Virus record (IMG/VR): IMGVR_UViG_2724679285_000001
Coordinates: 1,782 to 65,781 of that record
DNA length: 64,000 nucleotides
Direction: 5' to 3' (one strand)
Source of the DNA: a virus
Lineage: Duplodnaviria > Caudoviricetes
Shown: positions 1,253 through 29,890 of the stretch, piece by piece
Numbering within the stretch: the stretch's first letter is position 1
Layout: the number at the start of each line of letters is the position of its first letter
Program-made: the position numbers and the translations under genes
Notes under the pieces: model-generated
Told to the model about the DNA's origin: nothing
Seen by the model: the letters and a program-made list of their open reading frames with translations, nothing else
The model's database searches: none

Positions 1253-1786
1253 TCAGCCCTTCACTTTGGCGAGTTCTTCGGCGTCCTTCTGGACCCGCTC
1301 GGCACCCAATTCCAGCACCTTCGACTGCAGTTCGTCCCATTCTTCGCCGGTGTATTCGGGGTCTTCGGGGTCCATGAGTCGGGCGATGACGCGTTCGCGG
1401 GAGGCTTCGGAGATGTGGGTGGTTTCGAAGTCGCGGACGAGTCGGGTTTGGAATTCGAGGCTGGTGGTGCCGGCGTGCGCGATGGCGTTGATCATGCCCT
1501 TGGAGGGGATTTTGATGGCGAGCTGGTCGCCTTTGAAGGTGACCCAGTCGTATTGCCAGCCGTCGGGGTGTTTCCAGTTGGCTTTCTCGGCGCGGAGCCA
1601 CTGCCAGATTTTTTCGGCTTCGAGCCATTCGGCGACGGCGGCCTTGTCGACCTCAGCTTCGGGGGCGGGTTCGGCAGTAGCGGCCGGTGTGGGTTCAGGG
1701 GGAACGGCGGCGGCGGCAGCGGGCGCCGCAGTGACGACGACTTCAGCGGGGACAGCAGCAGTGGTGGTTTCCGGGGTTGTTTCCAT
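1253..1786 (-). CDS. probable tail assembly chaperone
   Basis: Acidic ~177 aa ORF directly upstream of the tape measure gene; ATG 1786 follows the late-promoter motif. Confidence 0.5.
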   Translation of the reverse strand: METTPETTTAAVPAEVVVTAAPAAAAAVPPEPTPAATAEPAPEAEVDKAAVAEWLEAEKIWQWLRAEKANWKHPDGWQYDWVTFKGDQLAIKIPSKGMINAIAHAGTTSLEFQTRLVRDFETTHISEASRERVIARLMDPEDPEYTGEEWDELQSKVLELGAERVQKDAEELAKVKG

Positions 1787-1816
1787 GCGGGGCATGGTGC
1801 TTTGGTGGCGTGCAGC

Positions 1817-1845
1817 CCCGCCGATAAGACCGGCTTATGTAAACC
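1817..1845. other. dif/XerCD-like recombination site (CCCGCCGATAA-gaccggc-TTATGTAAACC)
   Basis: 11-7-11 layout matching actinobacterial dif arms as recalled (GCCGATAA / TTATGTCAAG); the TAA stop of ORF 1835-2119 lies in the right arm. Confidence 0.7.
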
Positions 1846-2119
1846 TGGCTTCGGTTCGAACTAACCCTTTCGCGCGGAGGCAGGCGTCGCATCGGTCGGT
1901 CGGATGGCCGCCACAAGCGTGGATTTCCAGTGGCTCAAATCCGGCCGCCTCTGCTGCGGCGATCGCATAGAGATAGCCTTCCGCGAAAGCTTTCGACGCT
2001 TCACAGAACGGGCCGTCTTCGTGGCAGCAGCCAGCCTCGTTCATCTCGTGCCAATCCCCGATCAGGGAACGGCGGGCGTCGCGTACCGATGCTTTTGCCA
2101 GCTCAATGAAGCTACTCAT
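1835..2119 (-). CDS. hypothetical Cys/His-rich protein (cassette-borne)
   Basis: 94 aa ORF whose stop lies within the dif-like arm. Confidence 0.55.
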   Translation of the reverse strand: MSSFIELAKASVRDARRSLIGDWHEMNEAGCCHEDGPFCEASKAFAEGYLYAIAAAEAAGFEPLEIHACGGHPTDRCDACLRAKGLVRTEARFT

Positions 2120-2369
2120 AGGGGGCGTCGACCTCTTCTTTGGTCACGTCAATCTCTCCTTGTGTCAAGCTGGAATTAGGTGGGTAGTTTTGCTGCGGGC
2201 CCGGTCCAACGACCTCCACCTCTCCGAGTTCGCTCACTTCCGGAATGAAGGCGCGTACCACCCTGCGGAGGTAGTCACACGCCTGCTCGGCCATCTTCTG
2301 GCCTGGTGCGCTCACGCTGATGTACGTGCCGTCGCTCAGTTCCTGCTTGTACTGCCATACATTTGACAT
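2112..2369 (-). CDS. hypothetical protein (cassette-borne)
   Basis: 85 aa ORF overlapping the start of the next gene by 8 nt. Confidence 0.5.
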   Translation of the reverse strand: MSNVWQYKQELSDGTYISVSAPGQKMAEQACDYLRRVVRAFIPEVSELGEVEVVGPGPQQNYPPNSSLTQGEIDVTKEEVDAPYE

Positions 2370-2405
2370 CTGTAACTCCCGCAGCTTGTTTATCCGACAT
2401 CGGCG

Positions 2406-2765
2406 CTAAGGCAGCAGGGCCTGCACTGCTGCACGCGCTTTTCGGCGATGGATCAGTTGAGTGCGGTAGCTGAGTTCCCTCCATGACCACTTTTGCCCAG
2501 CTAGGTTTGAGTTGGCTATTGCCAGAGCGATCTGAATTTCAGTGCTCTCATCCATTGCAATTCCTTGCCCCGCTGATACGACACACTCGACATTCAGCGA
2601 TCCCAACTCGTCGCCAATCTCGTTCGAGTGCAGGATCAGGAAGTCATCACCGCCACCAAGAAGGATGTTGTTCACGAGCCAGGATTGCGACTGCGCATCG
2701 CCCGGGGGGTAGTGATCTGCGTCCACCTCCAAGACAGCGACAATCCGCAACCTTTGTTTGCTCAT
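2406..2765 (-). CDS. hypothetical protein (cassette-borne)
   Basis: 119 aa ORF with a strong RBS (AAAGGAAACAGAG-ATG) directly after the TTATCGGCG arm. Confidence 0.65.
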   Translation of the reverse strand: MSKQRLRIVAVLEVDADHYPPGDAQSQSWLVNNILLGGGDDFLILHSNEIGDELGSLNVECVVSAGQGIAMDESTEIQIALAIANSNLAGQKWSWRELSYRTQLIHRRKARAAVQALLP

Positions 2766-2776
2766 CTCTGTTTCCT

Positions 2777-2805
2777 TTCGCCGATAACCGAGCGGAACGT
2801 AACCC
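2777..2805. other. dif-like site with perfect left arm and degenerate right arm (TTCGCCGATAA-ccgagcg-GAACGTAACCC)
   Basis: Near-identical to 59617-59645; the right arm overlaps a -10 hexamer. Confidence 0.65.
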
Positions 2806-2847
2806 GGCGACCCGACATCGGCGTGGTTTCACGGCGTGGTTTCACGG
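2796..2847 (-). promoter_or_regulatory. PafBC/RecA-NDp-type promoter (TGTCGG-N10-TACGTT) with an upstream CGTGAAAC direct repeat
   Basis: Exact match to TGTCGG-N10-TA-N3-T; duplicated at 59636-59686. Confidence 0.65.
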
Positions 2848-2997
2848 GCTCGGTTCAGGCGCGCACACCGGAATTGAGCGCACTTTGGGGAGCAGGCAAA
2901 TCCTGCGCTCCGCTCAAAGTCGGGCGGCCACAGCGGGCGCACACCTCACCGCGCGGGACCACAACCGTTGTCAGATGCAGGCATCCCCACCGCGACA

Positions 2998-3408
2998 TCA
3001 GCGCGCGGCTTCCTCGGCCGCGACCCGCTCCCCCGCATTCCGCAGAAACGGCCTGGCTTTCGTCCCCGGATGCCGCACCAACCGCGCAAACACCGTCCGG
3101 CCACCGACCTCGAACCGCAGCACCGCCGCATTCCGGGGCCGGATCACATGCGGGCGGGTGCCCTCGTGGACGTACAGGGCGTAGTCCGCGGTCGCGTGCA
3201 CCGAACCAGTAACAGTGCGGGGCCCGACGGTGCGGATGTCACCTTCACCGATTGTGCGGCCCAGATTCCCGGTCTTGACGGGCACGTCCTGCTTCGCCTG
3301 GGTGGCGGTGCGCCGCTGCAGGCGCGCCATGCGGCGGCGGGCGTGGCCGACGATTTGCCGGTCGAATTCCGGCTCGTCGATGTGGAGGGTGAACCTAACC
3401 GACGCCAT
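2998..3408 (-). CDS. HK97 gp10-like neck/tail completion protein
   Basis: Motifs VPVKTGNL, YALYVHEGT and HPGTKARPFL; head-tail position. Confidence 0.75.
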   Translation of the reverse strand: MASVRFTLHIDEPEFDRQIVGHARRRMARLQRRTATQAKQDVPVKTGNLGRTIGEGDIRTVGPRTVTGSVHATADYALYVHEGTRPHVIRPRNAAVLRFEVGGRTVFARLVRHPGTKARPFLRNAGERVAAEEAAR

Positions 3409-3799
3409 GTGTGTTGTCCCAGAGGGCGATCAGGTCGTCGCGGCCGTCGTCGTCGGTGAACGCAACACCCTGACTGGTGAGGAATGCTGCCCATTTCGCG
3501 CGGGAGGCATTGCGGGCCGGCGGATCAACCGGCTCCGGTTCGGGCTCCGGTTCGGGCTCGGGGGTGACCTCCAACAACGTCGTCGGATCAATCACCACCG
3601 GCGCCGGCAAAGACACCACATTCACCGGCTCAGCATCCAACGCCGCCACCGACTCATCCTCGACCGGCCCCGACACCAACACGTAGAAGCCGCGGCGGAT
3701 CCGCTCCCGCACACCGCGTGAATACTCCACCGTCTTACGCTCACCCGTCGGTAAATCCACGCACGGCGTCTCACTGCCCTCAACCGTCACTCTCGCCAT
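3395..3799 (-). CDS. hypothetical virion-region protein with PE repeat and C-terminal helical motif
   Basis: Starts MARVTVEG; contains PEPEPEPEP and PARNASRAKWAAFL...DDLI. Confidence 0.6.
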   Translation of the reverse strand: MARVTVEGSETPCVDLPTGERKTVEYSRGVRERIRRGFYVLVSGPVEDESVAALDAEPVNVVSLPAPVVIDPTTLLEVTPEPEPEPEPEPVDPPARNASRAKWAAFLTSQGVAFTDDDGRDDLIALWDNTHGVG

Positions 3800-3812
3800 C
3801 ACACTGCGCCCT

Positions 3813-4355
3813 TCACTCTTGAACCAGCTGAACGAAAATCGGGGCCGTCCACGCCCGCGCCTCACCCTCCGGGCCGATCGGCGCGACCGTATCCGTGGCC
3901 ACTGCACGATCCTTCGACTTCAACCGGCACACGGCCACGGTCAGCGCGGTTTCGATGCGCCACGAATCGTCCAGGGAAATGAGTTCCTCGCTGGCGATGG
4001 CGTCCCAGTCGATGTACCGGGCTTCCATGGATGCGCACCGCGCCACCCCGATCTCCAACGCCACCACCGGGATCACGTCGACGGGCCGGCAGGGACCGTC
4101 GGATACCGACACCGCGGGGAACTGGCTCCGCTTCGCCCGGTAGCGGCTGATGAGCTGCACCCACACCAACGGACCCTCCCGGCAGTCGGTCACGAGACCG
4201 GGCGGGATGCCGGGGATTCCGTTGGCCAGGAACCGCACATCCTTGGTTCCTCCGCCTTCTGGTGGGCAGTCACTGTCGGGGTCGAATACCTCCCGGAGGA
4301 CCTGGGTGACGACCTGGACGACGTGCAGTGCGGGGTCGGTGCAGGGGATGGGCAT
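3813..4355 (-). CDS. probable tail terminator / head-tail protein
   Basis: ATG 4355 overlaps the upstream stop; synteny. Confidence 0.5.
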   Translation of the reverse strand: MPIPCTDPALHVVQVVTQVLREVFDPDSDCPPEGGGTKDVRFLANGIPGIPPGLVTDCREGPLVWVQLISRYRAKRSQFPAVSVSDGPCRPVDVIPVVALEIGVARCASMEARYIDWDAIASEELISLDDSWRIETALTVAVCRLKSKDRAVATDTVAPIGPEGEARAWTAPIFVQLVQE

Positions 4356-5119
4356 CAGAGTACTTCCGACGCGCAGGCGAGGCGGTGGGGGTTGACGGAC
4401 ATGATCCACCGGTCGATTTCGGGTAGGCCGGTGAAGCCGGCGGCGATGATCTTGGATGGGTCGAAGACGTGGCTGACGCCCTTCGCTGTGGTGGCCACCA
4501 GTGTTGGCGGAATCCGGCACTTGCTGCCGTCGCAGGCGAGGATGAATTCCTTGGCCAACAGCCCCGTCAGCCGGTCGACACCGGGCGGTACGGGAAGGCC
4601 GCGCTGGTAGTCCACGGACCAGGTGCCGGGTTCGCCGAGCGGACGCGCCAAATTCTGGCCGGGCCACACCGCGCCGTTGCGTCGGTACAGCACATCACCT
4701 TCCAGTACGTAGCTGGTCGGGTCGAGGGGCTGGCCGGCGACGGTGACGACGATCGGATCATCGACGGTGGGCGGGTAGACCGGTCCGGGTAGGTGGATGG
4801 TGGTGGCACTGGACATCCGGCACGCGCCTGCACAGGCACAGTCCAGCATGCCGGAGAATTGCTCGAATCCGTACCACTGCGCGGCGAGGTACCAGGACCA
4901 GGGCCAGCCTCGGGGTGGGCAGGGGCGCAGGCGGATTGGTTCGCCGCCGAATTGGCGGCCCGTCAAGGCCCAGAGGGTTTGGGTGGCGAGGTCTTCGGCG
5001 GCGTTGCGGGCGGCGAGCGCGTCGTCGTAGGTGGCCTGCTGCTCCTCGGTGGGCGCGTCCGGGAGGTCGGGCAGCTTGGGGAGGCATGTCCGGTCTATCG
5101 GCCAGGAGAACGACGTCAC
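4355..5119 (-). CDS. head-to-tail adaptor
   Basis: 254 aa with LATQTLWALTGRQF, LAKEFILAC and TGLPEIDRWI motifs typical of actinophage adaptors. Confidence 0.7.
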   Translation of the reverse strand: MTSFSWPIDRTCLPKLPDLPDAPTEEQQATYDDALAARNAAEDLATQTLWALTGRQFGGEPIRLRPCPPRGWPWSWYLAAQWYGFEQFSGMLDCACAGACRMSSATTIHLPGPVYPPTVDDPIVVTVAGQPLDPTSYVLEGDVLYRRNGAVWPGQNLARPLGEPGTWSVDYQRGLPVPPGVDRLTGLLAKEFILACDGSKCRIPPTLVATTAKGVSHVFDPSKIIAAGFTGLPEIDRWIMSVNPHRLACASEVL

Positions 5120-5209: not shown

Positions 5210-6316
5210 TTACGCGGGATCGATGTGCAGGGTCGGCGTGGTGCCACCAGTCAGGTTGTTATCCCCGACCGTCACCGTCACCCCAGCAGGCGGGACGATG
5301 GTCACCGTGCCCGCCGGCAGGTTCGTGCCCGACGTGGTCCAATCCGACGCGCTATAGCCATCGTCCAGAGCCACCAGAGCGGTCTTCACATTCGCCGGCG
5401 TCGCGTTATACACGATCGTGCCCGTCTCATCGGCCGGCTTGTCCAGATACGAAACAGCCAACGAGAACGTGCCACCCGTCGGGGAGCCCGTGATCGTCAA
5501 CTCCACACCCTCAGCCGAAGCCGGCTGATCCGGCGCCACATCCGCCGCCGCCTCATTCGCCGGGCCCGCGATGTAGTAATTCGGGGCCGTGAACACCGAC
5601 TGAACAGCCAGCGGCACAAGACCATCCGTCTCAGCCGGCGGCGCAACAGGCGTCTTGAAGAACGTCACATGCCGCTTCTTACCCACCGGCGACAACAGCC
5701 GCCCCGGAGTGTTGTTCCCGTCGATACGGGCCACGTTGTACGGGCCGCGATGCCAGTACGGACCGGGGATCGTAATACCGGAGAAGCCCAACTCCGACGG
5801 GTTCTCCGAGATGGCGTAATCACCGGACGGAATCCACTCCGTACCGAAGAACAACCAGTAACCGAACTCGGCGCCGGTGCCCTCCACCGAGAAGATCGCA
5901 TCCGACTCCGGCAGCGGGCACGACTCATCGGTCATCGCATCCGACCACACCTCGATCGCCACACCGCGCGTGTTGGACACGTCGGCGCCGTCGGCGAAAC
6001 CGATCGGGGTGTCGTCGTAGTCGAGGATCTGCTCGTACCCGGCGATCAGGGAGTACAGGGCGGGGTCAGCGCCGCAGGTCTTGATGTCGATGTTGTACCG
6101 CTGGAATTCCGGCGGGGTCCGCTTCTTGAAGCAGTCCTTGCCCTCGGCGTTCTTCTGCGTCTTCTCCTCGGCGGCGGTGACGTCCGGCGAGAGGGTGACG
6201 GAGATGAATGCGTTGGTGACGATGCGGTTTGACGCCCCTTGGATGGGCTTGCCGCATGCGTCGATGGCGGTGGCGCGTAGTGCCTTGCCGAAGATGACGG
6301 GAATGGCGCCGCTCAT
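5210..6316 (-). CDS. major tail protein with C-terminal Ig-like extension
   Basis: RATAIDACGKP and KNAEGKDC motifs; C-terminal GSPTGGTFSL...YNATPANVKTAL domain. Confidence 0.8.
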   Translation of the reverse strand: MSGAIPVIFGKALRATAIDACGKPIQGASNRIVTNAFISVTLSPDVTAAEEKTQKNAEGKDCFKKRTPPEFQRYNIDIKTCGADPALYSLIAGYEQILDYDDTPIGFADGADVSNTRGVAIEVWSDAMTDESCPLPESDAIFSVEGTGAEFGYWLFFGTEWIPSGDYAISENPSELGFSGITIPGPYWHRGPYNVARIDGNNTPGRLLSPVGKKRHVTFFKTPVAPPAETDGLVPLAVQSVFTAPNYYIAGPANEAAADVAPDQPASAEGVELTITGSPTGGTFSLAVSYLDKPADETGTIVYNATPANVKTALVALDDGYSASDWTTSGTNLPAGTVTIVPPAGVTVTVGDNNLTGGTTPTLHIDPA

Positions 6317-7693: not shown

Positions 7694-9763
7694 TTAGGAG
7701 ACGACCACCGTCGGGCTGGTACCACCGGTCAGGCCGTTGGTTCCGACCTGCAGGTCACCCAGGCGGGCCGGGTAGGTCACCGTGACTGCGGTGGGCAGCG
7801 CGCCGCCGGCGGTCACGATGTCGCCTGCCGCGGTGACGTTGTCGTCGATCGCGGTCAGTGTGGTGTCCACGGTCGCCGCGGACGCGTTGTAGGCGATCGT
7901 CCCGGACGGTGTGCCGTTGGCGGAGAACTTCAGCGTGAAGTTGCCGCCCGTCGGGCCGCCGGTCGTGGTCACCGTCTTGGTCACGGTGTCCGCATACGGG
8001 CCGGAGCAGTCGATGCTCTCCCGCGCGCCGACAGCACCGTTGACGCACAACGGAACCCGGATCAGATGCGAAGACCCGACGTCCGACGGACGGATACCGA
8101 CCTGGAACTCGTCCTCCACGAAGCCCAGCAGCTGCCGGTTCTTCGTCAGCATGTCGATGTCGTACATCGCGCCGACCGTCAGCACGTTGTCCAAGGCCCG
8201 CCAGAACGCGCCGGCCGGGAACAGCACCACATCCACGCTGCCCGGCCACCACGAGGTGTCGTAATGGCCCGGCTGCCTGGCGGTGAGGGACTGCCAGGTG
8301 CCCTCGTACTGCAGGTAGATGTCGCGGGAGGCGAGCCAGCGGTCCACGTCGGCGTCGGTGACGTCCAAGCCGTCGAGGCCGTCGCGGTTGGCCAGGTCGG
8401 CGCGCAGCACATCCCGGAACCAGATCGGGGCGATACCACCGATGGTGGTCTTTCGGGTCCGGATCTGAATGTTGCGGGCCCGCTGATGCAGGCCGTTCAG
8501 GATGCTGCCGGTCGCGCCCAGGACCGCGTCGGTCGGGACGACCTTCGCCGCGCTGGACAGGGCGAGCACCTTGATCAGCGACTTCGCCGAGATCCGCTGC
8601 TGATGCGCCACCAGGAACTCGTCGAGGAACTTCTTGATCAGCTCCGGCCACGCCCGCTTCTGCAGGATGCCCGCCTTGACGCCCCAACCGATCGCTTCCA
8701 ACCGGTACTCGGTCATCTCGGGCGGGCAGGGCACCTCGACGATGGTCTTGATCGCGGTCGGCTGGCCTCCGCCGTCGACGGCCTCCAGTTGGGCCTCGGT
8801 GAAGTGGAACCCGGTCTGCAGGCTGGTGAAATCCGGTTCGGACGGGATGATGATGCCGCCACGCGGCAGGCTCATCCCGGGGAACGACAGCAGGCCGACG
8901 GCCGGCTGGGTCGGATCGAAGCCGTACTGCTGCTCGGACGGGGCGCACCAACCACCGGCTGCGACAAGTGCCTTCGCGTCTGCGGCTTGTCCGGCGAACT
9001 TGCCGCCGTTGATCTCGGCGGTGACCCGGTCGAGTTCGGCGAGGAATTCGTCGTGCGTCTCGTACACCTTGCCCTCGGGGCGCTGCATCGTCGCCAACAC
9101 GGTGGGGACGCCGTCTCGCAGGCCGGTGAACTCGCCCTGGCCGTTGGCGATGCCCGCGGCGATCACGCTGGTGTCGACGGGCTTGCCGTCGTGCTGCGCG
9201 AAGTTCGGGGCGGTCGATGCGAGCAGGAACGGCTTGCGTACCTTCTCATCCACCTCAGGCTTCGGGGTGTCACCGGCCGGGGCGGCACCCTTGAACGACA
9301 CCGGCGCCGCGGGCGCGGCAGCGGTCACAGCGGCCGGCGCGGCAGCCTCGGCGGTGGCCTGCTCAGCTTCAGCGACCACCTCAGCCACAGCCTCAGCGGG
9401 CACCTCGGCGGGTGCTTCCTCGGCCGGCTTCGCGGGCGCCTCGGGCTCCGGGGCGGGCTTCGGCTTCGTGGCGGCCTCAGCGGCGGCCAGCGCGGCGTCG
9501 AGGCGCTCAGCGGCGCCCTTCTCCTCCGCCTCGGCCGCGGTTGCGAGACCGTTGATCTCGCTGAAGTTGGCGGTCAGGTATTCCAGCCGCTCGATGTCGG
9601 CCTTGATCTGAGCCTTCTGCTCCGGGGTTTCGTCACCGGTGAGGGTGAACTCGCCGGCGGAGCGGCGGGCCTGGAAGACGTTGATTTCGGCCTTGGCCTG
9701 CTCTGCCAGGGCGGTGAGCTCGGCGGCGGTTTCGGGAAGCTGATCGGGGCGCGTGAACTTCAC
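7694..9763 (-). CDS. major capsid (hexamer) protein with N-terminal scaffold-like and C-terminal Ig-like domains
   Basis: ALVAAGGWCAPSE motif; coiled Ala/Glu-rich N-terminus; RBS AGGAG before GTG 9763. Confidence 0.85.
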   Translation of the reverse strand: MKFTRPDQLPETAAELTALAEQAKAEINVFQARRSAGEFTLTGDETPEQKAQIKADIERLEYLTANFSEINGLATAAEAEEKGAAERLDAALAAAEAATKPKPAPEPEAPAKPAEEAPAEVPAEAVAEVVAEAEQATAEAAAPAAVTAAAPAAPVSFKGAAPAGDTPKPEVDEKVRKPFLLASTAPNFAQHDGKPVDTSVIAAGIANGQGEFTGLRDGVPTVLATMQRPEGKVYETHDEFLAELDRVTAEINGGKFAGQAADAKALVAAGGWCAPSEQQYGFDPTQPAVGLLSFPGMSLPRGGIIIPSEPDFTSLQTGFHFTEAQLEAVDGGGQPTAIKTIVEVPCPPEMTEYRLEAIGWGVKAGILQKRAWPELIKKFLDEFLVAHQQRISAKSLIKVLALSSAAKVVPTDAVLGATGSILNGLHQRARNIQIRTRKTTIGGIAPIWFRDVLRADLANRDGLDGLDVTDADVDRWLASRDIYLQYEGTWQSLTARQPGHYDTSWWPGSVDVVLFPAGAFWRALDNVLTVGAMYDIDMLTKNRQLLGFVEDEFQVGIRPSDVGSSHLIRVPLCVNGAVGARESIDCSGPYADTVTKTVTTTGGPTGGNFTLKFSANGTPSGTIAYNASAATVDTTLTAIDDNVTAAGDIVTAGGALPTAVTVTYPARLGDLQVGTNGLTGGTSPTVVVS

Positions 9764-9871
9764 GGCGTGCTCCTGTTCTCGGTGAAGCGTTTTCGTTTCG
9801 GTCCGATCGCTCCCCGGCACATAGCGCAGATCAGGAACTCTCTGGCGCGCGACGGTAAACAGGGTGCGTGC

Positions 9872-11174: not shown

Positions 11175-13409
11175 TCAGTGCCCTCCACCTTCGCCCGGCG
11201 CGTGACCGGGCCGCGCGCCGGTCGCCTCCCGGTGCAGCGACGCGCACAGACCGGAGATTTCGTGGTCCGGCAACGGTTTCTGCCCGTTCTCCATGATCTT
11301 CGCGTTGATCAGCTTCCGGCACCGATCGAAGTCACCGCTGCGGCCCCAGCCGATCTTCGCTGCACCGGCCCCGCCGAGCCAGTACTTCTTGAACTGCGCC
11401 GGCATCTGCGACCCCGGCCCCACCGCAGCAACCAACTCCGCGCGCATCAACAACTCATCGACCTCATCGGCCGGGGTCGGCGGCGGCGGCGGGTCACCGA
11501 CAGCTTCCTGCGCCGCGGTCAGAGCCGCATCCAGGCGGGCGGCGGCTTCGGCGCGTTCCCGTTCCTCGGCCATCATCTCCGCGAACGCCGCCTTCATGTC
11601 CTCGACCGAGGCCAGCACATGCGTTTGCGTCGGGGCGTGCCGCTGCGGGCCCAGCGACGCGACCAACGCCATCTCGCGGCCGTCGGGTCCGGTCTGCGCC
11701 GAGTAGATCGGGAAGCCGGGCGAGTTGACGGCGTGCGCGGCGATCATGTCGAGCGGGTAGCCGTCGCAGTCCCGCCAATCCCCCGACAACTGGGCTGTCA
11801 TGCCCTGCTGGAACACCTCCGGATCAACACCCGGCGCCGGAACACCCGAAAACCAGATACCGAACCGGTCCTCACCCACCCGCACCAGACCGAACGCGGT
11901 CGTGACATCGTCGTAATGCGCCCGGGCTGCCGCCGCGGTCACACCGCTCTCCGTCGATGCGTGCCCGCCCTGCACCGTCAGCCGGCCCACGGACAGCTGC
12001 TTTCCGTTGTTGAGCGGCACCTGGGAGGTGTGGAAGTTGCGGTACCCGTTGCGGTTGCGGGGTGTGACGTCGCGGCCGCCGCGGATCACATGCCCCCACT
12101 CGGCCAGGTGCCCGTAGATGCGGCCGGTCTCGTTGTTCATCGTGGGTGCCGTCGGCCCGGTCAGTTTCGGGTCCTCGAACATGCGCGGGTCGTAGGTGCG
12201 CAGCCGGGGTTCGGCGGTGGCGGATGCGGCGGTGAGCGCGGTGATCGCCGACGCGAAGTCCGGCTCCGGCTCGTCGATCACGTCAGGCTCAACCACGTCG
12301 GTCATCACGTACTCCTCCACGTCGATGGACGCCACGCGCCCAACACCATCCGCTGTATCCCGCGCCCGCACATTCCCAGCGTCGCGCCGGCGCTGAATTT
12401 CCTCCGCCTGGGTGCGACCACCCCGGTTGACGGCGGTTGAGTCGCGGCCGTCGAGGCGCTCAGTGTGCCGGTCCACCTCAGTCGGCAGGGGCTCACCGGC
12501 GGCCAGTATCCCGAGTCGGCATCGGCAGTTGTAGACCTCTTCTGGTGGTCCTGTCGGATCGCCCGGGTACGCTAGTTCGGCGCCACCGACGGTGAACTTT
12601 GCGTCGATCGGTACGCGGGATCCGTCTGCGGCCCAGTGTGTTGCGCGTGTCTTGGCGTCGTTCGTCGCGATCCACGTCTTGTCCAACTGTTCGCCGAACT
12701 CGGTGTTCTGCTGCTGCGCGGCGGTGATCACCGCGTTGTTGAGCAGGCCGGCGGTCTGGTAGCTCTTGGTTTGGGCGATGCCGGTGAGGGTTTCGCCGGC
12801 GGGGTCGAGTGCCTGGGTGGCGGCTGCGCGCTGCTCCGTAACGGATGGTGCAGCGCCGGCAGGGGATTCGGCGGCCTGCACCGCGGCCTCGACTTTCGCC
12901 TGAACGACGGCGGGAATGTTGGCGGCTTCGACGCGCTGCGCCGCAACCACAGTATCGCGGGCCGCCGACAACCCCGGGTCCGCGTCGACCATGTCGGCGG
13001 CTTGCAGGATCTCCGCCGAGTTCATGTCGGTGACTGCGGCGTCGACGATCTTCAGGACTCGCTCGTCGTAGGCGGGGCCGGGAACGTCCGGCAGTTCCGG
13101 TAGCGGGATGCCGAGTGCGCGCATGGTTTCGATGACGGCGGCCGACCATAGCAGCGTGATACCGGCGATGATCACGACTTCGGTTGTGACGCCCCATGAG
13201 CCGGTGGCGGTCGTCGAGGACACGGCGGTGGTGTGCGGCGGTAGCGGTTCCTGGGGCTGCTGGTCGGCGGCCGCGGCGGTGAGCATTGTCGGTAGGACCG
13301 CGGCGCGCACGTCGGGTATCCACCTCGAGAGTGCTTCCCGATAGAGGTTTTCGACGGCTTGTTCGGCGAGGACGGTTCGGTCGAGCGCCTCACCCGGTGC
13401 CGGCCACAT
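11175..13409 (-). CDS. MuF-like minor head domain fused to capsid maturation protease
   Basis: KTWIATNDAKTRATH...YPGDPTGPPEEVYNCRC (MuF), then IYGHLAEWG, GGHA and LSGDWR (protease). Confidence 0.8.
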   Translation of the reverse strand: MWPAPGEALDRTVLAEQAVENLYREALSRWIPDVRAAVLPTMLTAAAADQQPQEPLPPHTTAVSSTTATGSWGVTTEVVIIAGITLLWSAAVIETMRALGIPLPELPDVPGPAYDERVLKIVDAAVTDMNSAEILQAADMVDADPGLSAARDTVVAAQRVEAANIPAVVQAKVEAAVQAAESPAGAAPSVTEQRAAATQALDPAGETLTGIAQTKSYQTAGLLNNAVITAAQQQNTEFGEQLDKTWIATNDAKTRATHWAADGSRVPIDAKFTVGGAELAYPGDPTGPPEEVYNCRCRLGILAAGEPLPTEVDRHTERLDGRDSTAVNRGGRTQAEEIQRRRDAGNVRARDTADGVGRVASIDVEEYVMTDVVEPDVIDEPEPDFASAITALTAASATAEPRLRTYDPRMFEDPKLTGPTAPTMNNETGRIYGHLAEWGHVIRGGRDVTPRNRNGYRNFHTSQVPLNNGKQLSVGRLTVQGGHASTESGVTAAAARAHYDDVTTAFGLVRVGEDRFGIWFSGVPAPGVDPEVFQQGMTAQLSGDWRDCDGYPLDMIAAHAVNSPGFPIYSAQTGPDGREMALVASLGPQRHAPTQTHVLASVEDMKAAFAEMMAEERERAEAAARLDAALTAAQEAVGDPPPPPTPADEVDELLMRAELVAAVGPGSQMPAQFKKYWLGGAGAAKIGWGRSGDFDRCRKLINAKIMENGQKPLPDHEISGLCASLHREATGARPGHAPGEGGGH

Positions 13410-15319
13410 CAGGCGTCCACCACCGGCGACGTCAGCCGGCGCCGCGCCTGAGCTACCACCGACTTCCGCACATCATCAGCCGAAAACCCATACTTGGCTG
13501 CCAGATCATCCAGCCCCGAGTCGAATCCGGCAATCAGGCGACCCACCTCGGATTCGGCGACTGCAGGCAGCGACTGATGCCACTCGTGTGCCGGCCGGGC
13601 TGCCAGACGTGCCCGCTGATCGTGGTCATACGTCTTGACCCGACGCTTCCCCGCGAGGTCCAGCGCGCGAGTGAGGTAGGAGTCTGCGACGATATCCACG
13701 CCATCGCCGATCGCGGCCGTCACTGGCTTCCGCGGCGCCTGCCCCTCCGTATCCGGGACCTGCCCCTGCACCGGCACATACGGCGGTGGATCGCCGTGGT
13801 CTGTCGGGTCACCCGCCGGCGATAACGCCGGCTGCGGGGGTTCCGGGAAGTCGATCGACTGAATCTTGGGATCCAACAACGGCAACACATCCCGGATCAC
13901 CTGCACGAACTCCGTCGGGTCAGCCTTCGCGACCTTGTCCCGCGCCAACTCCTGCAGCCCCTCCAACGTGGTGAGGTCGTAGCCGTCGTCCTCGGCCAGC
14001 CCGAGATACCGCAGCAGCGCAGAGTGTTTCAACGCGTTCGCGGCTTCGGCGTCCTTCGCCTCATCCGTCTTGTCCGGGTCCGCGGTGAGCGCTGACGCGT
14101 CGACGGTCAGCACATACTTGCTCGGGTCGATGCCCAGTTTGATGAGCATGCCGACGATCACGTTGCGGTAGATCGCCTGGCAGATCGTCTGCATGACGGG
14201 TTTGACGTGCAGGTTCACGTCCTGGTCGGCGAGCAGGTACCCGTTCCAGTGGTTCGTGTCGCCGAGGCCCAACAGTTGGTCGGGTTCCATGTCGATGCCG
14301 CGCGCGAACCGCAGGATCGCGGCCTCACGCTTCTTGAGTTCCATCTCCGACACGTCCTTGCCGAACGTGACGTGCTTGATCTTGTCGACATGCTCAGCGG
14401 GCACGGTGACGACGATCGGGGTGATCGCCGCATGCGACTGCGGGTCCTGCAGGCCAAGGTCATTGGCCTTCACGATCTGCGCCTGCACGGTCCGGCCGAC
14501 CGGTTCCTGCCGCGGCCCAGTGTCCGGGTCCCCGCCTGGCTTCCCCGCGGACGTGGGGCCCTGAGCCGACGGCAGCGACGCCTCCGCCGGCAACGCCAGC
14601 AGACCGTTGTTGCCCAGCCGGGACCGGTCCGCGTTCTCCATCTTCGCGGTCGTGCGCACGATCTCGCGTAGCGGCGTCAGGTTCGATCGGACTGGGGATG
14701 TCGCCTCGGTGGGATCGTTGGGGTGGGGGTTCCACACCCGGAACATGCCGTCACCATTGGCGGGGTTGTACTCGTGCTGTGTCCCGTCGGGCAGGGTGAG
14801 TGTGAGCCCGTCGGGGTTCTTCTGTGAGCGTTTGATCTGCTTCTTGGATAGCGCTTCCCACCGCGCGACCTGCTTATCGGGCGGCCCGACCATCAGGATG
14901 GCCGTGTGGAACTCGCCGGGCACACCGAGGATCTGCACGGCGCGTTCGATGAACTCCGCCTGTCCGAGTGCGCCACCCGCAATGGAATGCACGATCGCCG
15001 CGAACTTCTCACCTTCGGTGTTCCCTTCGGTGATAGACCCGGTCGGTTGGCCTGTCCTCGGATCAATCTCGGAGGCAACCAGCTTCACGCGCTTGCACGA
15101 CCGGGCGCGCCACCGCACATAGCATTCGAGTTCTCCGACGAGGTCGAATAGCTCCCAGGCTTCTTCCTGCCACTCGCGGCGCGGGCCGAGGGTGGTGGAT
15201 TTGAACATGTCGGTCGCCGAGTTGATGGGGGCGGATGCGGCGACCAGCGCGGCCGGTGTCGGCACAGCAGCCGTCAGCGCGCGGCGACGAGCGTTACGCA
15301 ATTCAGCTGGTGCGGCCAC
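13409..15319 (-). CDS. portal protein
   Basis: 636 aa with WQEEAWELFDLVGEL, RVWNPHP and NHWN motifs; lies between terminase and protease. Confidence 0.8.
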   Translation of the reverse strand: MAAPAELRNARRRALTAAVPTPAALVAASAPINSATDMFKSTTLGPRREWQEEAWELFDLVGELECYVRWRARSCKRVKLVASEIDPRTGQPTGSITEGNTEGEKFAAIVHSIAGGALGQAEFIERAVQILGVPGEFHTAILMVGPPDKQVARWEALSKKQIKRSQKNPDGLTLTLPDGTQHEYNPANGDGMFRVWNPHPNDPTEATSPVRSNLTPLREIVRTTAKMENADRSRLGNNGLLALPAEASLPSAQGPTSAGKPGGDPDTGPRQEPVGRTVQAQIVKANDLGLQDPQSHAAITPIVVTVPAEHVDKIKHVTFGKDVSEMELKKREAAILRFARGIDMEPDQLLGLGDTNHWNGYLLADQDVNLHVKPVMQTICQAIYRNVIVGMLIKLGIDPSKYVLTVDASALTADPDKTDEAKDAEAANALKHSALLRYLGLAEDDGYDLTTLEGLQELARDKVAKADPTEFVQVIRDVLPLLDPKIQSIDFPEPPQPALSPAGDPTDHGDPPPYVPVQGQVPDTEGQAPRKPVTAAIGDGVDIVADSYLTRALDLAGKRRVKTYDHDQRARLAARPAHEWHQSLPAVAESEVGRLIAGFDSGLDDLAAKYGFSADDVRKSVVAQARRRLTSPVVDA

Positions 15320-15346
15320 GGTGCGGGACGGTATCTGTGCTGGGTG

Positions 15347-15694
15347 TTAGTCCTTATCCCCGCCGCCTGTGGTCAGCCGCGCCCCAACCCCAACCAGGTG
15401 GGAGACGGCGAGCAGGATCAGCGGGCACCACCACAGCGGCCAGCCGATGATGACGACCGGGATCCACGCGGTGAAGATGCCCACCCAGATCGAAATGCAC
15501 CACGGGCAGGCGGCGAACTCGTGCAGCGTCGCCCACCGCTCACGCTCTTTCATCGACCTGCCCTCGTCGCGTGCGCGGCGGAGCACCGCCAGGCGGAGTG
15601 GGTCGATGAGGGAGTCGGCGTTGACGAACTGTGTGACCCGCGCGGCGACGAGTGTGTAGATCACTAACACGAGTACGGCGTATCCGAGGTTCAT
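15347..15694 (-). CDS. DUF1360-like membrane protein
   Basis: ARVTQFVNAD...CPWCISIW, with transmembrane segments. Confidence 0.7.
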   Translation of the reverse strand: MNLGYAVLVLVIYTLVAARVTQFVNADSLIDPLRLAVLRRARDEGRSMKERERWATLHEFAACPWCISIWVGIFTAWIPVVIIGWPLWWCPLILLAVSHLVGVGARLTTGGGDKD

Positions 15695-15787
15695 GGGCCG
15701 GGACGGTAGGCGTGGTGGGTGCGAGCGCCTACGCCGTGAAAAATTCCCGATATTGGTTACGCACTGTGCGTAACACGCTATGTCTGA

Positions 15788-16375
15788 TCAGGCAGAACGC
15801 TTTTTGTCTCGGTACCTAGCGAGCCTGATACGGCCGCACTCACGGCAGTATTCGCGGCCCCGCTTGTTGCGGTAGATGTTTCGTTCGATCTTCGGGCAGC
15901 CGCAGGCAAACTGCTCTACTCGCTTCCCTGGCTGCGTCTTTTGGACTCGAAGCACTTGGTCCCGTTGCGTCTTGAACCGCTCGGCTTCCTTGGCAGCTTG
16001 CGCGAGGGCGTGTTGGGTGGCGGCGCAGTCGATCTGGGACAGGCGGAGTTCCTTGGTGAGTTTCTCGATTTCCTCGTGCATCATCGTGCACAGGCTGGTC
16101 ATGGGTTGAGAGCGGATGTCCCGGATCAGGCGGATGGAGCCGCCGATGCGTTCGGTGATTTCCTCAGCGGACCAGCCGGCCAACGTCAACCCGGCGACGA
16201 TCCATGATCGGTCGGAGGGTTCGTAGTCGGTGAGGCGTTTCGGCCAGCGCGGCACGGTGAGCATGGCGGGCACGAGTTGGAGGTCGGGTTGCCATCGGGG
16301 GGCGGCTTTCCCGTCGGGCCGGTAACCGGGTCGGTCATTGTCGAGGTCAACCACTGCCAGATCAGCCAAGGTCAC
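15788..16375 (-). CDS. HTH DNA-binding protein with coiled coil and C-terminal Cys motifs
   Basis: GWSAEEITERIGGSIRLIRDI HTH and CGC...CREC; leaderless GTG start inferred from the promoter motif. Confidence 0.6.
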   Translation of the reverse strand: MTLADLAVVDLDNDRPGYRPDGKAAPRWQPDLQLVPAMLTVPRWPKRLTDYEPSDRSWIVAGLTLAGWSAEEITERIGGSIRLIRDIRSQPMTSLCTMMHEEIEKLTKELRLSQIDCAATQHALAQAAKEAERFKTQRDQVLRVQKTQPGKRVEQFACGCPKIERNIYRNKRGREYCRECGRIRLARYRDKKRSA

Positions 16376-16382
16376 AGGGTGG

Positions 16383-16433
16383 AAGGTAAGACGCGGGGGT
16401 GATATCCCCGTTGTTTCACGCAATGTTTCACGG
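16383..16433 (-). promoter_or_regulatory. promoter TATCAC-N10-TACCTT with upstream CGTGAAAC x2
   Basis: Same geometry as 2796-2847, 16835-16884 and 59636-59686. Confidence 0.55.
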
Positions 16434-16441: not shown

Positions 16442-16469
16442 GACGCCGAGAATCCGGTCTATGTCACGC
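16442..16469. other. dif-like site (GACGCCGAGAA-tccggt-CTATGTCACGC)
   Basis: 11-6-11 layout, located 9 bp past the stop of ORF 16478-16756. Confidence 0.6.
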
Positions 16470-16477: not shown

Positions 16478-16756
16478 TTAACGGGCCACGCACAGCGGCG
16501 CTAGCGTGCCGTCGCTGAGAATGGCCAACTCCACCGCCATATCCTGAAAGCGATCCCACACATCAGTGCTTATGCCCTTGTCGAGCGCCAGCGAGAACGG
16601 GCACTCGCGCAGGTCGGGAACCTGCTGCTTACACACCCCCGAGTGCAGGATGTACACGGCCTGATCGGCCGATGCCGCCCGTCCGTAGTGGATGCTTGGG
16701 TGGCGAGGGGCCCCAACGATTTGCTCGATTTCGCCGCTTGGAACGTGGTCGGTCAT
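16478..16756 (-). CDS. hypothetical protein
   Basis: 92 aa; VYILHS..C..DLRECPFSLALDKGI. Confidence 0.6.
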   Translation of the reverse strand: MTDHVPSGEIEQIVGAPRHPSIHYGRAASADQAVYILHSGVCKQQVPDLRECPFSLALDKGISTDVWDRFQDMAVELAILSDGTLAPLCVAR

Positions 16757-16834
16757 TTCAACGTCTCCAGGGTCTTGATCAGCTCGGTCTTGCTCTCGAT
16801 GACCTTCTGGGCGCGGTCACGGGTCAAGCACGGA

Positions 16835-16884
16835 AGGTATCCCGCCACTATGACACCGCCGATGTTTCACGGACGGTTTCACGG
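16835..16884 (-). promoter_or_regulatory. promoter TGTCAT-N10-TACCTT with upstream CGTGAAAC x2
   Basis: Variant of the PafBC-like motif plus the shared direct repeat. Confidence 0.55.
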
Positions 16885-18515: not shown

Positions 18516-18929
18516 CTAGGAGGCGATCAACTGTTGGGCCCGCTGAAACGACACGCCGAGTACCTCGCCCACGTCGCGAACCGCTACCCCGCGCGCCGCT
18601 AACTCCCGCGCCAACTCCCGCGCTCCCTCCGCCGCTGCTGCCGCGGCCCGTTCAGCGGCCGCACGATCCGCGGCCACCTTCGCAGCGCGTTGGGTAACGT
18701 CCACCCCGTCAACGCACAGCGTGATGTCCACTGCGACATCAGATGGCGCCGAATCGGTCACTGTGCAGATGTAGTCGATCGCCTGACTTTTCACTTCACC
18801 GAGCCGGCGCGCCTGAGTAGTTCCCCCGATGTTGACCGCACCGCTGGGGGTGACGTAGCCGTCCAGTTCGGGCACGGTGACCATCCACCAGCGGTCGTCG
18901 CGGGTGACGGTGACCTTGTAGGTGTGCAT
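18516..18929 (-). CDS. hicB: HicB-like antitoxin
   Basis: YKVTVTRDDRWWMVTVPELDG...TQARRL, plus C-terminal HTH (RDVGEVLGVSFQRAQQL). Confidence 0.8.
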   Translation of the reverse strand: MHTYKVTVTRDDRWWMVTVPELDGYVTPSGAVNIGGTTQARRLGEVKSQAIDYICTVTDSAPSDVAVDITLCVDGVDVTQRAAKVAADRAAAERAAAAAAEGARELARELAARGVAVRDVGEVLGVSFQRAQQLIAS

Positions 18930-18940
18930 GTCGCGCTCCT

Positions 18941-29620: not shown

Positions 29621-29649
29621 TTCGCCGAGAACGCCGACTTATGTCAAGC
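29621..29649. other. dif-like site (TTCGCCGAGAA-cgccgac-TTATGTCAAGC)
   Basis: Closest match in the window to actinobacterial dif as recalled. Confidence 0.75.
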
Positions 29650-29850: not shown

Positions 29851-29861
29851 CTCTGCTTCCT

Positions 29862-29890
29862 TTCGCCGATAACGTTGCGTTCGGTCATGT
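29862..29890. other. dif-like site (TTCGCCGATAA-cgttgcg-TTCGGTCATGT)
   Basis: Perfect left arm and degenerate right arm; flank CTCTG.TTCCTTTCGCCGATAAC shared with 2766-2788. Confidence 0.65.

Follow-up and report, generated by a model that had tools for sequence, protein, structure and literature searches.

What is the role of a short DNA segment that is present twice in a phage genome, each time in front of a different gene? The question arises from a 64,000-nt stretch of a Caudoviricetes virus, a temperate mycobacteriophage (the whole stretch is referred to as the window), in which two nearly identical segments of about 70 bp, pads A and B, were noticed. A pad could be a site at which foreign genes are captured, or it could be a promoter. 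Our analysis indicates that it is probably a promoter module heading acquired genes, with a -26 box read by PafBC and further boxes read by a second factor, and not a recombination platform.

Pads A and B are both on the minus strand, and 61 of 68 positions are identical (Table 1). The identity spans the sequence from the first CGTGAAAC box to the end of the 9-mer TTATCGGCG, at which an earlier, sequence-only reading of this DNA had also seen it end, and the flanks are unrelated on either side. Common to both pads is a 39-nt core, TGTCGGGTCnnCGGGTTACGTTCCGCTCGGTTATCGGCG, with mismatches at its two n positions only; it matches the window twice, compared to no match in 100 shuffled sequences. 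The order of parts is CGTGAAAC-N5-CGTGAAAC, N8, TGTCGG, N10, TACGTT, N8, TTATCGGCG, a 13-nt stretch with the ribosome-binding site (RBS), and ATG. This agrees with the reported tandem repeat of 13-nt period, with the reported TGTCGG-N10-TACGTT, and with the placement on the coding strand directly 5' of an RBS and ATG, but TACGTT and TTATCGGCG are separated by 8 nt and not by the 7 bp given there. The -10 hexamer had also been said to overlap a degenerate recombination arm. We could not confirm this: a 7-bp inverted repeat around the -26/-10 core (CGCCGAT ... ATCGGCG) is clean in pad A alone, imperfect in pad B and missing from the other family members described below. The genes behind the pads are unrelated, as claimed; BLASTP of P0003 (119 aa, behind pad A) against P0004 (88 aa, behind pad B) gave no alignment at E<=100.

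Table 1. Location and content of features in the window.
Feature	Position	Strand	Details
Cassette-end element ACATAAG-N6-TTATCGGCG	1819-1840	-	holds ORF94 TAA stop
Three small ORFs behind pad A	1835-2765	-	119, 85, 94 aa; GC3 0.62, 0.71, 0.63
Pad A RBS stretch AAAGGAAACAGAG and ATG of ORF119	2763-2778	-	
Pad A	2779-2846	-	distal CGTGAAAC 2839-2846, proximal CGTGAAAC 2826-2833
Pad A core		-	TGTCGG 2812-2817 (-26-type element), TACGTT 2796-2801 (-10), TTATCGGCG 2779-2787
Pad A predicted transcript start	~2787-2788	-	
D gene (P0005, phrog_928)	15788-16375	-	kept in 5/5 relatives and second element
Site D	16383-16432	-	CGTGAAAC x2 (12-nt period), N8, TATCAC, N10, TACCTT 16383-16388
Variant cassette-end element ACATAG-N6-TTCTCGGCG	16444-16464	-	behind ORF92
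ORF92 behind site C	16478-16756	-	phrog_13233
Site C	16834-16883	-	CGTGAAAC x2 (12-nt period), N8, TGTCAT, N10, TACCTT
Cassette-end element ACATAAG-N6-TTCTCGGC(G)	29624-29644	-	behind ORF65
ORF65, headed by locus III	29653-29850	-	GC3 0.58
Locus III, TTATCGGCG, RBS and ATG	29848-29872	-	no pad promoter upstream
PafBC-consensus match TGTCGGGGGTCACAGCTAGCTT	43522-43543	+	8 nt 5' of protease ATG
ImmA/IrrE-like protease gene (P0001)	43552-43989	+	HELIH motif
Cassette-end element ACATAAG-N6-TTCTCGGC(C)	59324-59344	-	holds ORF88 TAA stop
ORF88 (P0004) behind pad B	59339-59605	-	Cys-rich, GC3 0.72
Pad B	59619-59686	-	CGTGAAAC 59679-59686 and 59666-59673
Pad B core		-	TGTCGG 59652-59657, TACGTT 59636-59641, TTATCGGCG 59619-59627

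The original pair proved to be incomplete. Diverged copies are present at sites C and D, and repeat finding on the window clustered pads A and B and sites C and D as one family unprompted. CGTGAAAC occurs ten times in the window against 2.82 expected, always on the minus strand, and eight of the ten copies form four tandem pairs. Two further members (E and F) were found in a second prophage-like element, the sister element, of the same host genome. The layout of the six sites is two CGTGAAAC boxes, N8, T(G/A)TC(G/A)N, N10, and TAC(G/C)TT or TACCGT, followed by a start codon or by a short leader with an RBS, and every site is oriented with the coding strand. The N8 and N10 spacers are exact in 6/6 sites; other bases differ, and the gap between the paired boxes is 3, 4 or 5 nt. 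Site C is located directly after the large terminase gene, 5' of ORF92. At site D, TACCTT-N7 leads to an in-frame GTG (16373-16375), the predicted leaderless start of the D gene. The orthologous D gene of the sister element (55-58% protein identity) retains the layout with a leaderless ATG behind it, and the second site of that element heads a leaderless HTH_17 Xis-like gene adjoining an integrase gene.

It had been suggested that the pad be searched across phage databases; no copy was found beyond this phage and the one sister element of the same host, and blastn of positions 2760-2860, 59300-60000 and 2848-3010 against a phage database returned no match. CGTGAAAC-N4-5-CGTGAAAC-N8-TRTC had no match in viral_contigs and eight loci in genome_contigs, five of them within one Mycolicibacterium assembly, three 8-kb loci of which are 100% identical to the window. 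Across the whole 6.8-Mb host genome the tandem motif occurs five times, exclusively inside the two elements, and the reversed control does not occur. Among the sequencing runs listed, no RNA run contained the stretch, and four DNA runs yielded only fragments identical to this phage, pad B among these. The idea that tandem CGTGAAAC is common among phages was rejected: it matched at least 119 viral loci, but a reversed control 8-mer matched 70. Among the 119 loci listed, none has T[GA]TC[AG]-N11-TAnnnT within 45 nt downstream of the tandem, the downstream ORFs belong to many small unrelated groups, and homologues of the large terminase (TerL) of this phage occur at 12, chiefly in one phage group. 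The pad core TGTCGGGT-N5-GGTTACSTTCC had no viral locus, and its five metagenome loci were discarded, none having a nearby CGTGAAAC or a phage-shared protein. A literature search on GTGAAAC as a phage promoter motif gave nothing relevant.

Judged by sequence, the family members are composite promoters that lack a -35 box; no sigma-70-type -35/-10 pair was found at pads A and B or sites C and D. The pads had been described as carrying a damage-type promoter, and TGTCGG-N10-TACGTT is an exact match to the published consensus for PafBC, tGTCgg(N10)tA(N3)T, a 22-nt motif with a -26 element and no -35 (PMC8635444). In that account, the GTC triplet of the -26 box is read by PafB, and PafBC switches on most DNA-damage-induced mycobacterial genes (PMC8635444). 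Exact matches to the consensus as given there are present in pads A and B, in site E and at 43522-43543, and the window contains five matches versus 0.16 expected. The motif is found 64 times in the host genome, compared to 11 for the reversed control, and two adjacent WYL-domain ORFs (341 and 369 aa) are present in the host assembly. Many of the host motif sites listed read TGTCGGTG; the pads read TGTCGGGT. The -26 boxes of the remaining members do not match, site C having TGTCAT, and sites D and F TATCAC, in which the first G of GTC is missing. Because these three boxes deviate, PafBC cannot account for every family member, and in A, B and E the likeness could be incomplete or a coincidence.

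A PafBC motif without CGTGAAAC boxes, of the leaderless type, also precedes the ImmA-like protease gene. It is found 5' of the protease gene in 14 of 18 related loci, with conservation limited to the consensus positions, and in phage Dori it is located 8 nt 5' of gp46, a 'metallo-protease' gene with a curated GTG start. This phage group appears to make actual use of PafBC-type promoters. A far-reaching scheme, which we consider rather unlikely, would have the host PafBC activator wired directly into the prophage, with the protease expressed from this leaderless promoter and destroying the repressor, giving prophage induction free of RecA/LexA. The portable version of the promoter, the pad, would be gated by two phage-specific boxes and copied before newly acquired genes, forming a movable expression platform with a TTATCGGCG junction that also bounds gene cassettes, and the copy at xis in the sister element would sense the same signal.

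The leaderless geometry of site D has a parallel in phage Dori, in which the curated start of gp5 is a GTG 7 nt past TACCTT. By eye, the D-gene promoters of relatives have no TGTCGG box; Dori has cGTCGt at the corresponding place, and in relatives G002 and G008 the GTG behind a -10-like hexamer is out of frame. GTAACGGTT, found upstream of D homologues in three relatives, was rejected as a repeated promoter element, being single-copy per genome.

The second question is what reads the CGTGAAAC boxes. Control could be exerted by the phage alone: a phage activator on the boxes, centred near -41.5 as at a class II promoter, would recruit RNA polymerase, the T(G/A)TC box would be part of this phage-specific promoter, its PafBC likeness would be coincidental, and the sister element would have copied its helper's promoter, timing its own xis and D genes. 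We regard this as possible, if on balance doubtful. The CGTGAAAC pair is the best-conserved part of the sites (6/6), the proximal box keeps a constant distance from the -10 box, and the motif is confined to two elements of the host genome; the PafBC motif at the protease gene, however, is conserved in relatives and has no CGTGAAAC. Likewise, the TATCAC of D and F is poor for PafBC (PMC8635444), but the full TGTCGG-N10-TAnnnT is present in 3/6 sites. The D proteins of the two elements are close homologues that share the helix GGSIRLIR unchanged, and a site precedes each D gene as well as, in the sister element, the Xis-like gene; yet relatives lacking CGTGAAAC still encode D homologues with a very similar helix. 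The D-protein model (pLDDT 86) displays an HTH, one long helix and, at the C terminus, a Cys4 stretch. Profile searches of solved structures gave coiled-coil matches only, and a fold search had no hit at E<=0.001, the best being GerE/LuxR and sigma-region-4 HTH proteins (E 0.56-3). The D protein is a weak candidate for the CGTGAAAC binder. Neither DUF6551, a family found fused to a ParB fold, nor a ParB-fold protein was supported as binder; DUF6551 is present in the phage, but in only 1/49 other tandem-CGTGAAAC records, and was found in 0/28 relatives.

The boxes might instead serve silencing, as stoperator-like operators or host ParB half-sites that keep prophage promoters shut until induction, which we find highly improbable. 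CGTGAAAC is exactly half of the host parS, and three perfect copies of GTTTCACGTGAAAC are clustered on one host contig. ParB binds the parS palindrome as a dimer, and we know of no established binding at direct half-sites; the phage itself has no gene for a ParB_N domain. Lysogeny requires virion genes and xis to be off, and the boxes, located in short gaps between genes of the virion operons, all point in the direction of transcription. They do not, however, overlap the core promoter but lie 5' of it, at positions typical of an activator, and they differ from the operator-like repeats of the predicted repressor (TTACAAGTG and ACTTGTCAC) in the divergent control region 42838-42950. Cluster A phages have two dozen or more stoperators, compared to four sites here.

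The genes behind the sites are accessory in character. The three-ORF insert of pad A has the Neck1/tail-completion gene on one side and the tail assembly chaperone gene on the other; its ORFs matched no Pfam or PHROG family, and ORF88 had no family match. None of the five related whole genomes searched contains a homologue of an ORF behind A, B or C, and none of 14 related loci, in which the flanking virion genes are conserved, contains a homologue of the inserted ORFs. GC3 of the accessory ORFs is 0.58-0.76, compared to 0.81 +/- 0.06 for 27 late-region genes, and a search of the coding strand downstream of these ORFs gave no terminator-like site. Since the ORFs behind the pads are unrelated to each other and missing from five relatives, the pads do head inserted genes; three of the four phage sites (A, B and C) head genes that are morons by their small size, low GC3 and absence from the five relatives. 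Among the matches listed, homologues of ORF92 (15 of 49) are found in Gordonia phages close to the right genome end, at 40-47 kb of ~48-55 kb.

The 9-mer TTATCGGCG has five exact copies in the window versus 0.36 expected, four of them on the coding strand and intergenic. It forms a mosaic junction in pad A, which is like pad B upstream of it and like locus III downstream of it, TTATCGGCG and the RBS stretch sharing 24 of 25 positions with the latter. It also brackets the three-ORF insert (2779-2787 and 1819-1827). A composite end element is present behind 4/4 accessory ORF blocks and missing from the five relatives and the sister contig; the one at 1819-1840 lies 23 nt 5' of the tail assembly chaperone ATG. 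A search of viral_contigs gave five loci with the end element, four of which look like chance; the fifth, L286, is a contig of a distantly related actinophage in which the arrangement is the same. In cassettes 1 and 2, and in L286, the upstream ORF terminates ...ACA TAA inside the element. The recurrence of TTATCGGCG at cassette ends is unaccounted for by a pure promoter reading.

The sequence-only reading had regarded the pad as an analogue of the integron Pc+attI. The 9-mer would then be the core of site-specific recombination, and promoter-less cassettes ending in ACATAAG-N6-TTMTCGGCG would be captured behind a resident promoter. The enrichment, the mosaic junction and the cassette ends described above fit this proposal, but its mechanism was not supported, and we judge it very unlikely. 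No IntI-type recombinase gene is present beside the pads, the neighbours being virion genes; the only tyrosine integrase found (44027-45373) is ~41 kb from pad A and 14 kb from pad B, and is part of a standard repressor-protease-integrase (immunity-integration) module. As single-stranded DNA the four end elements fold no better than shuffled sequences (z -0.59 to +0.71), and thus show no attC-like structure. TTMTCGGCG is found at both ends of cassettes 1-3 but is missing 5' of cassette 4, the blocks are single with no arrays, and the looser core TTCTCGGCG is common within genes of relatives. Searches of phage, viral and metagenome collections revealed no pad outside the two elements and no association of pad or core with different cargo. 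TTMTCGGCG follows its hexamer, be it TACGTT or nACATA, after the same 7-8 nt, which suits its reading as an 'initial transcribed sequence' just as well. Immediate expression of any inserted cassette, as had been proposed, is speculation.

We return to the promoter module, whose activity, start site and two trans-acting factors we infer from sequence patterns. The proximal CGTGAAAC would lie at about -45 to -38, centred near -41.5, and T(G/A)TC(G/A)N at about -29 to -24, with TAnnnT as the -10 box. Transcription is predicted to start ~7 nt past the -10 box, which in pads A and B falls on the first bases of TTATCGGCG and in three other members on the start codon itself, giving a leaderless mRNA. 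The housekeeping form of RNA polymerase cannot use a promoter that lacks a -35 box unaided; PafBC, the DNA-damage activator of the host, would read the -26 box of pads A and B ('sigma adaptation'), and a second factor, probably phage-encoded and either an activator or a repressor, would read the upstream boxes. Pads A and B probably result from recent duplication or gene conversion of the module, copies of which would have been placed 5' of small genes from elsewhere, inserted among virion genes (morons). With their own module in front, the morons would not depend on the late operon for expression, and DNA damage or induction would be the most likely trigger. The identity between the pads would end at TTATCGGCG because the shared module, including its first transcribed bases, ends there, and TTATCGGCG is also a junction between reassorted modules.

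Damage sensing by temperate mycobacteriophages is, to our knowledge, poorly understood, and a literature search found no paper linking PafBC to phage promoters or prophage induction. Exact, rigidly spaced PafBC-type promoters on a prophage, together with the conserved pairing with the ImmA-like protease gene (14 of 18 related loci, and Dori), make the question directly testable. The presence of one promoter module and common boundary motifs at unrelated morons is relevant to the entry of accessory genes into virion operons and to their expression at these places. Should the boxes and the 9-mer merely reflect local promoter duplication, this would be an ordinary, well-characterised promoter family.

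Several known systems resemble the one described here. Integrons consist of a Pc promoter and an attI site with attC-bearing cassettes. The likeness is in a resident promoter reading into promoter-less ORFs and a short core at cassette boundaries; here there is no adjacent IntI, folded attC, array, or sign of mobility in the collections searched. Cluster A stoperators and Cluster K start-associated sequences are repeats of mycobacteriophages that, like the present motifs, are short, asymmetric, intergenic and co-oriented with transcription, and TTATCGGCG with the RBS 13-14 nt before ATG is reminiscent of a start-associated sequence; they differ from the present motifs in sequence, in copy number and in where they lie relative to the promoter core. 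PeSL (promoter-early stem-loop) cassettes of T4-type phages are proposed mediators of modular shuffling. They are alike in having a repeated regulatory module flanking unrelated small ORFs, with repeats at mosaic junctions, whereas here there is no stem-loop, four copies, another promoter type, and a location in virion-gene operons instead of the early hyperplastic region. The morons of lambdoid phages are inserted genes with their own promoter within late operons, and they share with our cassettes small genes, missing in relatives, between conserved virion genes, deviant composition and a predicted own promoter. In the present case unrelated genes share a near-identical promoter module and end element, and no coding-strand terminator was found. 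At class II promoters the activator is centred at -41.5, and tandem direct repeats of the pho-box type replace the -35. The proximal box near -41.5, direct repeats about one helical turn apart and the missing -35 are in line with this arrangement; a period of 11-13 nt and an additional -26 box are not. The closest geometry is that of PafBC (RecA-NDp) promoters of mycobacteria, which have the same 22-nt spacing as A, B, E and the protease promoter, likewise with no -35 and a housekeeping-type -10 (PMC8635444). Compared to these, the pads are phage-borne, carry two extra upstream boxes in fixed register and include three members with a degenerate -26 box, with PafBC dependence being putative.

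By its sequence, the pad belongs to a lineage-specific family of predicted composite promoters lacking a -35 box; it is present in duplicate, its core is of the PafBC type, and it heads morons of the virion operons. The two copies, pads A and B, are identical at 61 of 68 positions on the minus strand. Identity starts at the first CGTGAAAC and stops after TTATCGGCG, the flanks are unrelated, and the ORFs behind the pads (119 aa for A and 88 aa for B) show no mutual similarity. The sequence-only reading, which described a near-identical duplication in front of unrelated ORFs with identity ending at the TTATCGGCG arm, is borne out. Both pads read CGTGAAAC-N5-CGTGAAAC-N8-TGTCGG-N10-TACGTT-N8-TTATCGGCG, followed by a RBS and an ATG. 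The window contains ten copies of CGTGAAAC versus 2.82 expected, all on the minus strand, and eight of these form four tandem pairs. The additional pairs are found at site C, just after the terminase gene, and at site D; both have a 12-nt period and continue with N8, TGTCAT (C) or TATCAC (D), N10, and TACCTT. A repeat search without prior input grouped the two pads and sites C and D as one family (D4).

The virus record is estimated to be complete, and the window covers 64,000 of its 65,781 bases. The GC content of the window is ~65%, nearly all genes are located on the minus strand, and PHROG scans identified a siphovirus-type virion module. Since the tape-measure gene is cut by both record ends, the record, to judge from this arrangement, is a circularly permuted assembly broken within that gene, and its ends are not natural genome ends. 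The phage is temperate, and Pfam scans of 57 non-structural ORFs identified tyrosine integrase, WhiB, HTH_3, HTH_17, Rha/ANT, HNH, and other families. The closest database phages are Mycobacterium phage Dori and Cluster-B-like phages, with protein identities of only 40-70%. A pair of HicA-like (69 aa, Pfam HicA_toxin) and HicB-like (142 aa, phrog_8245) genes, both missing from five relatives, lies directly upstream of the TerL gene. The capsid, the major tail protein, and a 162-aa protein encoded just upstream of pad B share a C-terminal domain of ~95 aa (PHROG matches phrog_10909/792).

Features of the window, with positions, strand, and basis of annotation
Feature	Position	Strand	Basis
Tape measure, split by record ends	1-1222 + 62809-63984	-	PHROG
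Tail assembly chaperone	1253-1795	-	PHROG
Head-tail adaptor, connector, Neck1 genes	2998-5119	-	PHROG
Major tail protein	5210-6316	-	PHROG
Capsid	7694-9820	-	PHROG
MuF/protease fusion	11175-13409	-	PHROG
Portal	13409-15319	-	PHROG
Large terminase (TerL)	16973-18481	-	PHROG
Minor tail genes	down to about 55.6 kb	-	PHROG
HicA-like/HicB-like pair	18516-19150	-	
162-aa protein	59689-60177	-	
DUF6551 protein	32796-33626	-	
Pad A (with TTATCGGCG and PafBC-motif match)	2779-2846	-	
Pad B (with TTATCGGCG and PafBC-motif match)	59619-59686	-	
Site C	16834-16883	-	
Site D	16383-16432	-	
24-codon ORF	16757-16827	-	
Repeat family D9	15321-15355, 15696-15730, 50118-50152	-	
PafBC-motif matches, intragenic	12552; 12949	+; -	
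PafBC-motif match before P0001 gene	43522-43543	+	
Divergent control region	42838-42950		
Immunity module	42989-45373	+	
Intergenic TTATCGGCG, locus III	29864-29872	-	
Intergenic TTATCGGCG, behind pad A insert	1819-1827	-	
End elements	1820-1840, 29624-29644, 59324-59344, 16444-16464		

The host is very probably a Mycolicibacterium, because the window is matched at 100% identity by three loci of 8 kb in a public Mycolicibacterium assembly. The layout pattern was found at eight loci across 185,579 species genomes, five of them in that one assembly (four belonging to this phage and one to contig C53), and had no match among 2.9 million viral contigs. On C53, the host genome has a second element related to this phage (L259/L260, 10395-21954), encoding a tyrosine integrase, a Xis-like HTH_17 protein, a resolvase-like protein, homologues of the D gene product and phrog_779, and a tape-measure protein. 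The D homologue, the phrog_779 homologue, and the tape-measure gene, which is 69% identical to that of this phage, follow within 9 kb after the integrase and Xis-like genes, and no head genes were found between the latter and the tape-measure gene. A defective prophage is one possibility for this element; a satellite listening to the same signal is another. Its two predicted pad-family promoters are site E, CGTGAAAC-N5-CGTGAAAC-N8-TGTCGG-N10-TACCTT-N7-ATG of the D homologue, and site F, CGTGAAAC-N3-CGTGAAAC-N8-TATCAC-N10-TACCGT-N8-ATG of the Xis-like gene. N8 and N10 are constant in six of six sites, the gap between boxes is 3-5 nt, and other bases differ. Across the entire 6.8-Mb host genome there are five tandem CGTGAAAC pairs with boxes 4-5 nt apart, all within the two elements, and the reversed control does not occur. 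The tandem CGTGAAAC loci of other viral contigs (at least 119) were uninformative, as the reversed control 8-mer gives 70.

All family sites are intergenic and on the coding strand. TAnnnT is the mycobacterial -10 box, and a start codon 7-8 nt behind it is a leaderless arrangement common in actinobacteria. The family hexamers fit this consensus, and at sites D, E, and F the start codon follows the hexamer by 7-8 nt. The curated start of Dori gp5, a D homologue, is a GTG 7 nt after TACCTT; among related genomes, in-frame GTGs follow TACCCT by 8 nt in G007 and TACCGT by 9 nt in G005, and in G002 and G008 a nearby GTG is out of frame. No sigma-70-type -35/-10 pair was found at pads A and B or sites C and D, and a helper protein would therefore be needed. 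If transcription begins 7 nt downstream of the -10 box, as predicted, the proximal CGTGAAAC would extend from about -45 to -38, and about -29 to -24 would be occupied by the T(G/A)TC box. In the pads, transcripts are predicted to start at the first bases of TTATCGGCG, so the duplicated block would consist of the promoter and the first nine or ten transcribed bases. A second leaderless promoter-like family (D9), CACCC-N8-TACCGTCCCG-N3-4-(A/G)TG, heads the portal gene, a DUF1360 gene, and a 40-aa ORF. Site C is followed by an ORF of 24 codons with a TTG start 6 nt after TACCTT and a TGA overlapping the ATG of ORF92 (ATGA), possibly a leaderless upstream ORF with translational coupling.

According to PMC8635444, the PafBC in-vivo motif is tGTCgg(N10)tA(N3)T; it comprises a -26 element and a canonical -10 but no -35, and PafB reads the guanines of the GTC triplet. 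Pads A and B and site E match this motif exactly, in agreement with the earlier proposal of a damage-type promoter at TGTCGG-N10-TACGTT, and by sequence the pads qualify as PafBC-type. Against extending this to the whole family, the box is TGTCAT at site C and TATCAC, with the first G lost, at sites D and F; against a simple PafBC reading, many listed host sites have TGTCGGTG where the pads have TGTCGGGT. The motif occurs five times in the window versus 0.16 expected, and 64 times in the host genome versus 11 for the reversed control. The host also has two WYL-domain ORFs side by side.

One window match, a predicted leaderless promoter, lies 8 nt before the ATG of the gene for P0001, an ImmA/IrrE-like protease (145 aa, HELIH motif, weak IrrE/M78 match). 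In the immunity module this gene is preceded by that of a repressor-like HTH protein (P0002) and followed by the tyrosine integrase gene. The Dori counterpart is gp45-gp47, where the motif has its sole match in that genome, TGTCGGTGGCCTTTCCTACATT, 8 nt upstream of the curated GTG of gp46, a 'metallo-protease' adjoining the integrase gene. Relatives of P0001 have TGTC[AG]G-N10-TAnnnT directly upstream at 14 of 18 viral loci (L262-L279). The motif precedes the ATG by 6-8 nt at ten loci aligning from residue 1, and at L273, L274, L276, and L277 an ATG can be read 6 or 8 nt behind it. L278 has CGTCAG, a sequence resembling the mycobacterial LexA box is found instead at L272 and L275, and L279 has neither. 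Conservation is confined to the consensus positions, and therefore indicates selection on this predicted promoter motif. The phage group appears to use PafBC-type promoters, and the pairing of motif and protease gene at the 14 loci and in Dori suggests damage-induced repressor cleavage via PafBC. The conserved PafBC-type promoter before an ImmA-like protease gene is the most testable lead.

Candidate binders of the upstream boxes were also considered. CGTGAAAC is exactly half of the host parS, and three perfect GTTTCACGTGAAAC copies occur on one host contig; the phage encodes no ParB_N domain, and ParB is given a low probability as the binder. A weak candidate is the D protein (P0005). Close D homologues with the identical helix GGSIRLIR are encoded by both box-carrying elements, a site precedes each D gene, and the structure model (pLDDT 86) has a HTH, a helix of 57 residues, and a Cys4 C-terminus. 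A similar helix is, however, present in relatives that lack the boxes. Matches of the P0005 fold to GerE/sigma-region-4 HTH domains were not significant. The 276-aa DUF6551 protein, which has weak GmrSD_N and DndB matches, is missing from 28 related records; it is not supported as a binder, since only one of the 49 other viral records that have CGTGAAAC in tandem encodes this family and none of the 28 relatives does. Repeated TTACAAGTG, ACTTGTCAC, and ACTTGTAAC occur in the divergent control region that separates the leftward early genes from the repressor-like gene; they are probably repressor operators and bear no relation to CGTGAAAC.

Five related complete genomes lack homologues of the ORFs that follow A (119, 85, and 94 aa), B (88 aa), and C (92 aa). 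Those that follow pad A also have none in 14 related loci, in which the chaperone and tape-measure genes come directly after the Neck1 gene. Of the genes behind the sites, the D gene alone is conserved (5/5 relatives). GC3 of the accessory ORFs is 0.58-0.76 versus 0.81 +/- 0.06 for 27 late-region genes of at least 100 aa. Homologues of ORF92 are found at 40-47 kb of 48-55 kb Gordonia phage genomes, among the 15 listed of 49 matching records. The ORFs behind A, B, and C are morons with a shared predicted promoter.

TTATCGGCG has five exact copies in the window versus 0.36 expected, four of them intergenic on the minus strand. One immediately follows the three ORFs inserted behind pad A and precedes the chaperone ATG by 23 nt. 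Another, at locus III (29848-29872), lacks the promoter module and heads an orphan ORF (65 aa, GC3 0.58, missing from relatives). Locus III matches pad A at 24 of 25 positions over TTATCGGCG and the next 16 nt (RBS, ATG), and pad A is therefore B-like upstream and III-like downstream of the 9-mer. A second element, ACATA[AG]-N6-7-TT[AC]TCGGC, is located behind each of four accessory blocks; it is absent from five relatives and C53, and no special fold was found. One further copy, with the same spacing and then a RBS and ATG, occurs in a distant actinophage contig (L286) that shares three proteins with this phage at 37-41% identity. Reassortment at or near the 9-mer is evident from these findings. 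The suggested recombination half-site gains some support from the recurring 9-mer and the mosaic pad A, but the facts are equally compatible with a conserved first-transcribed sequence, as TTMTCGGCG in every case follows a hexamer by 7-8 nt, the hexamer being TACGTT for the pads and nACATA for the end elements. A true site-specific capture system is improbable. The proposed integron analogy does not extend beyond one level, at which the likeness holds: in the pads, as in an integron, a shared promoter precedes unrelated inserted genes, and a boundary motif recurs.
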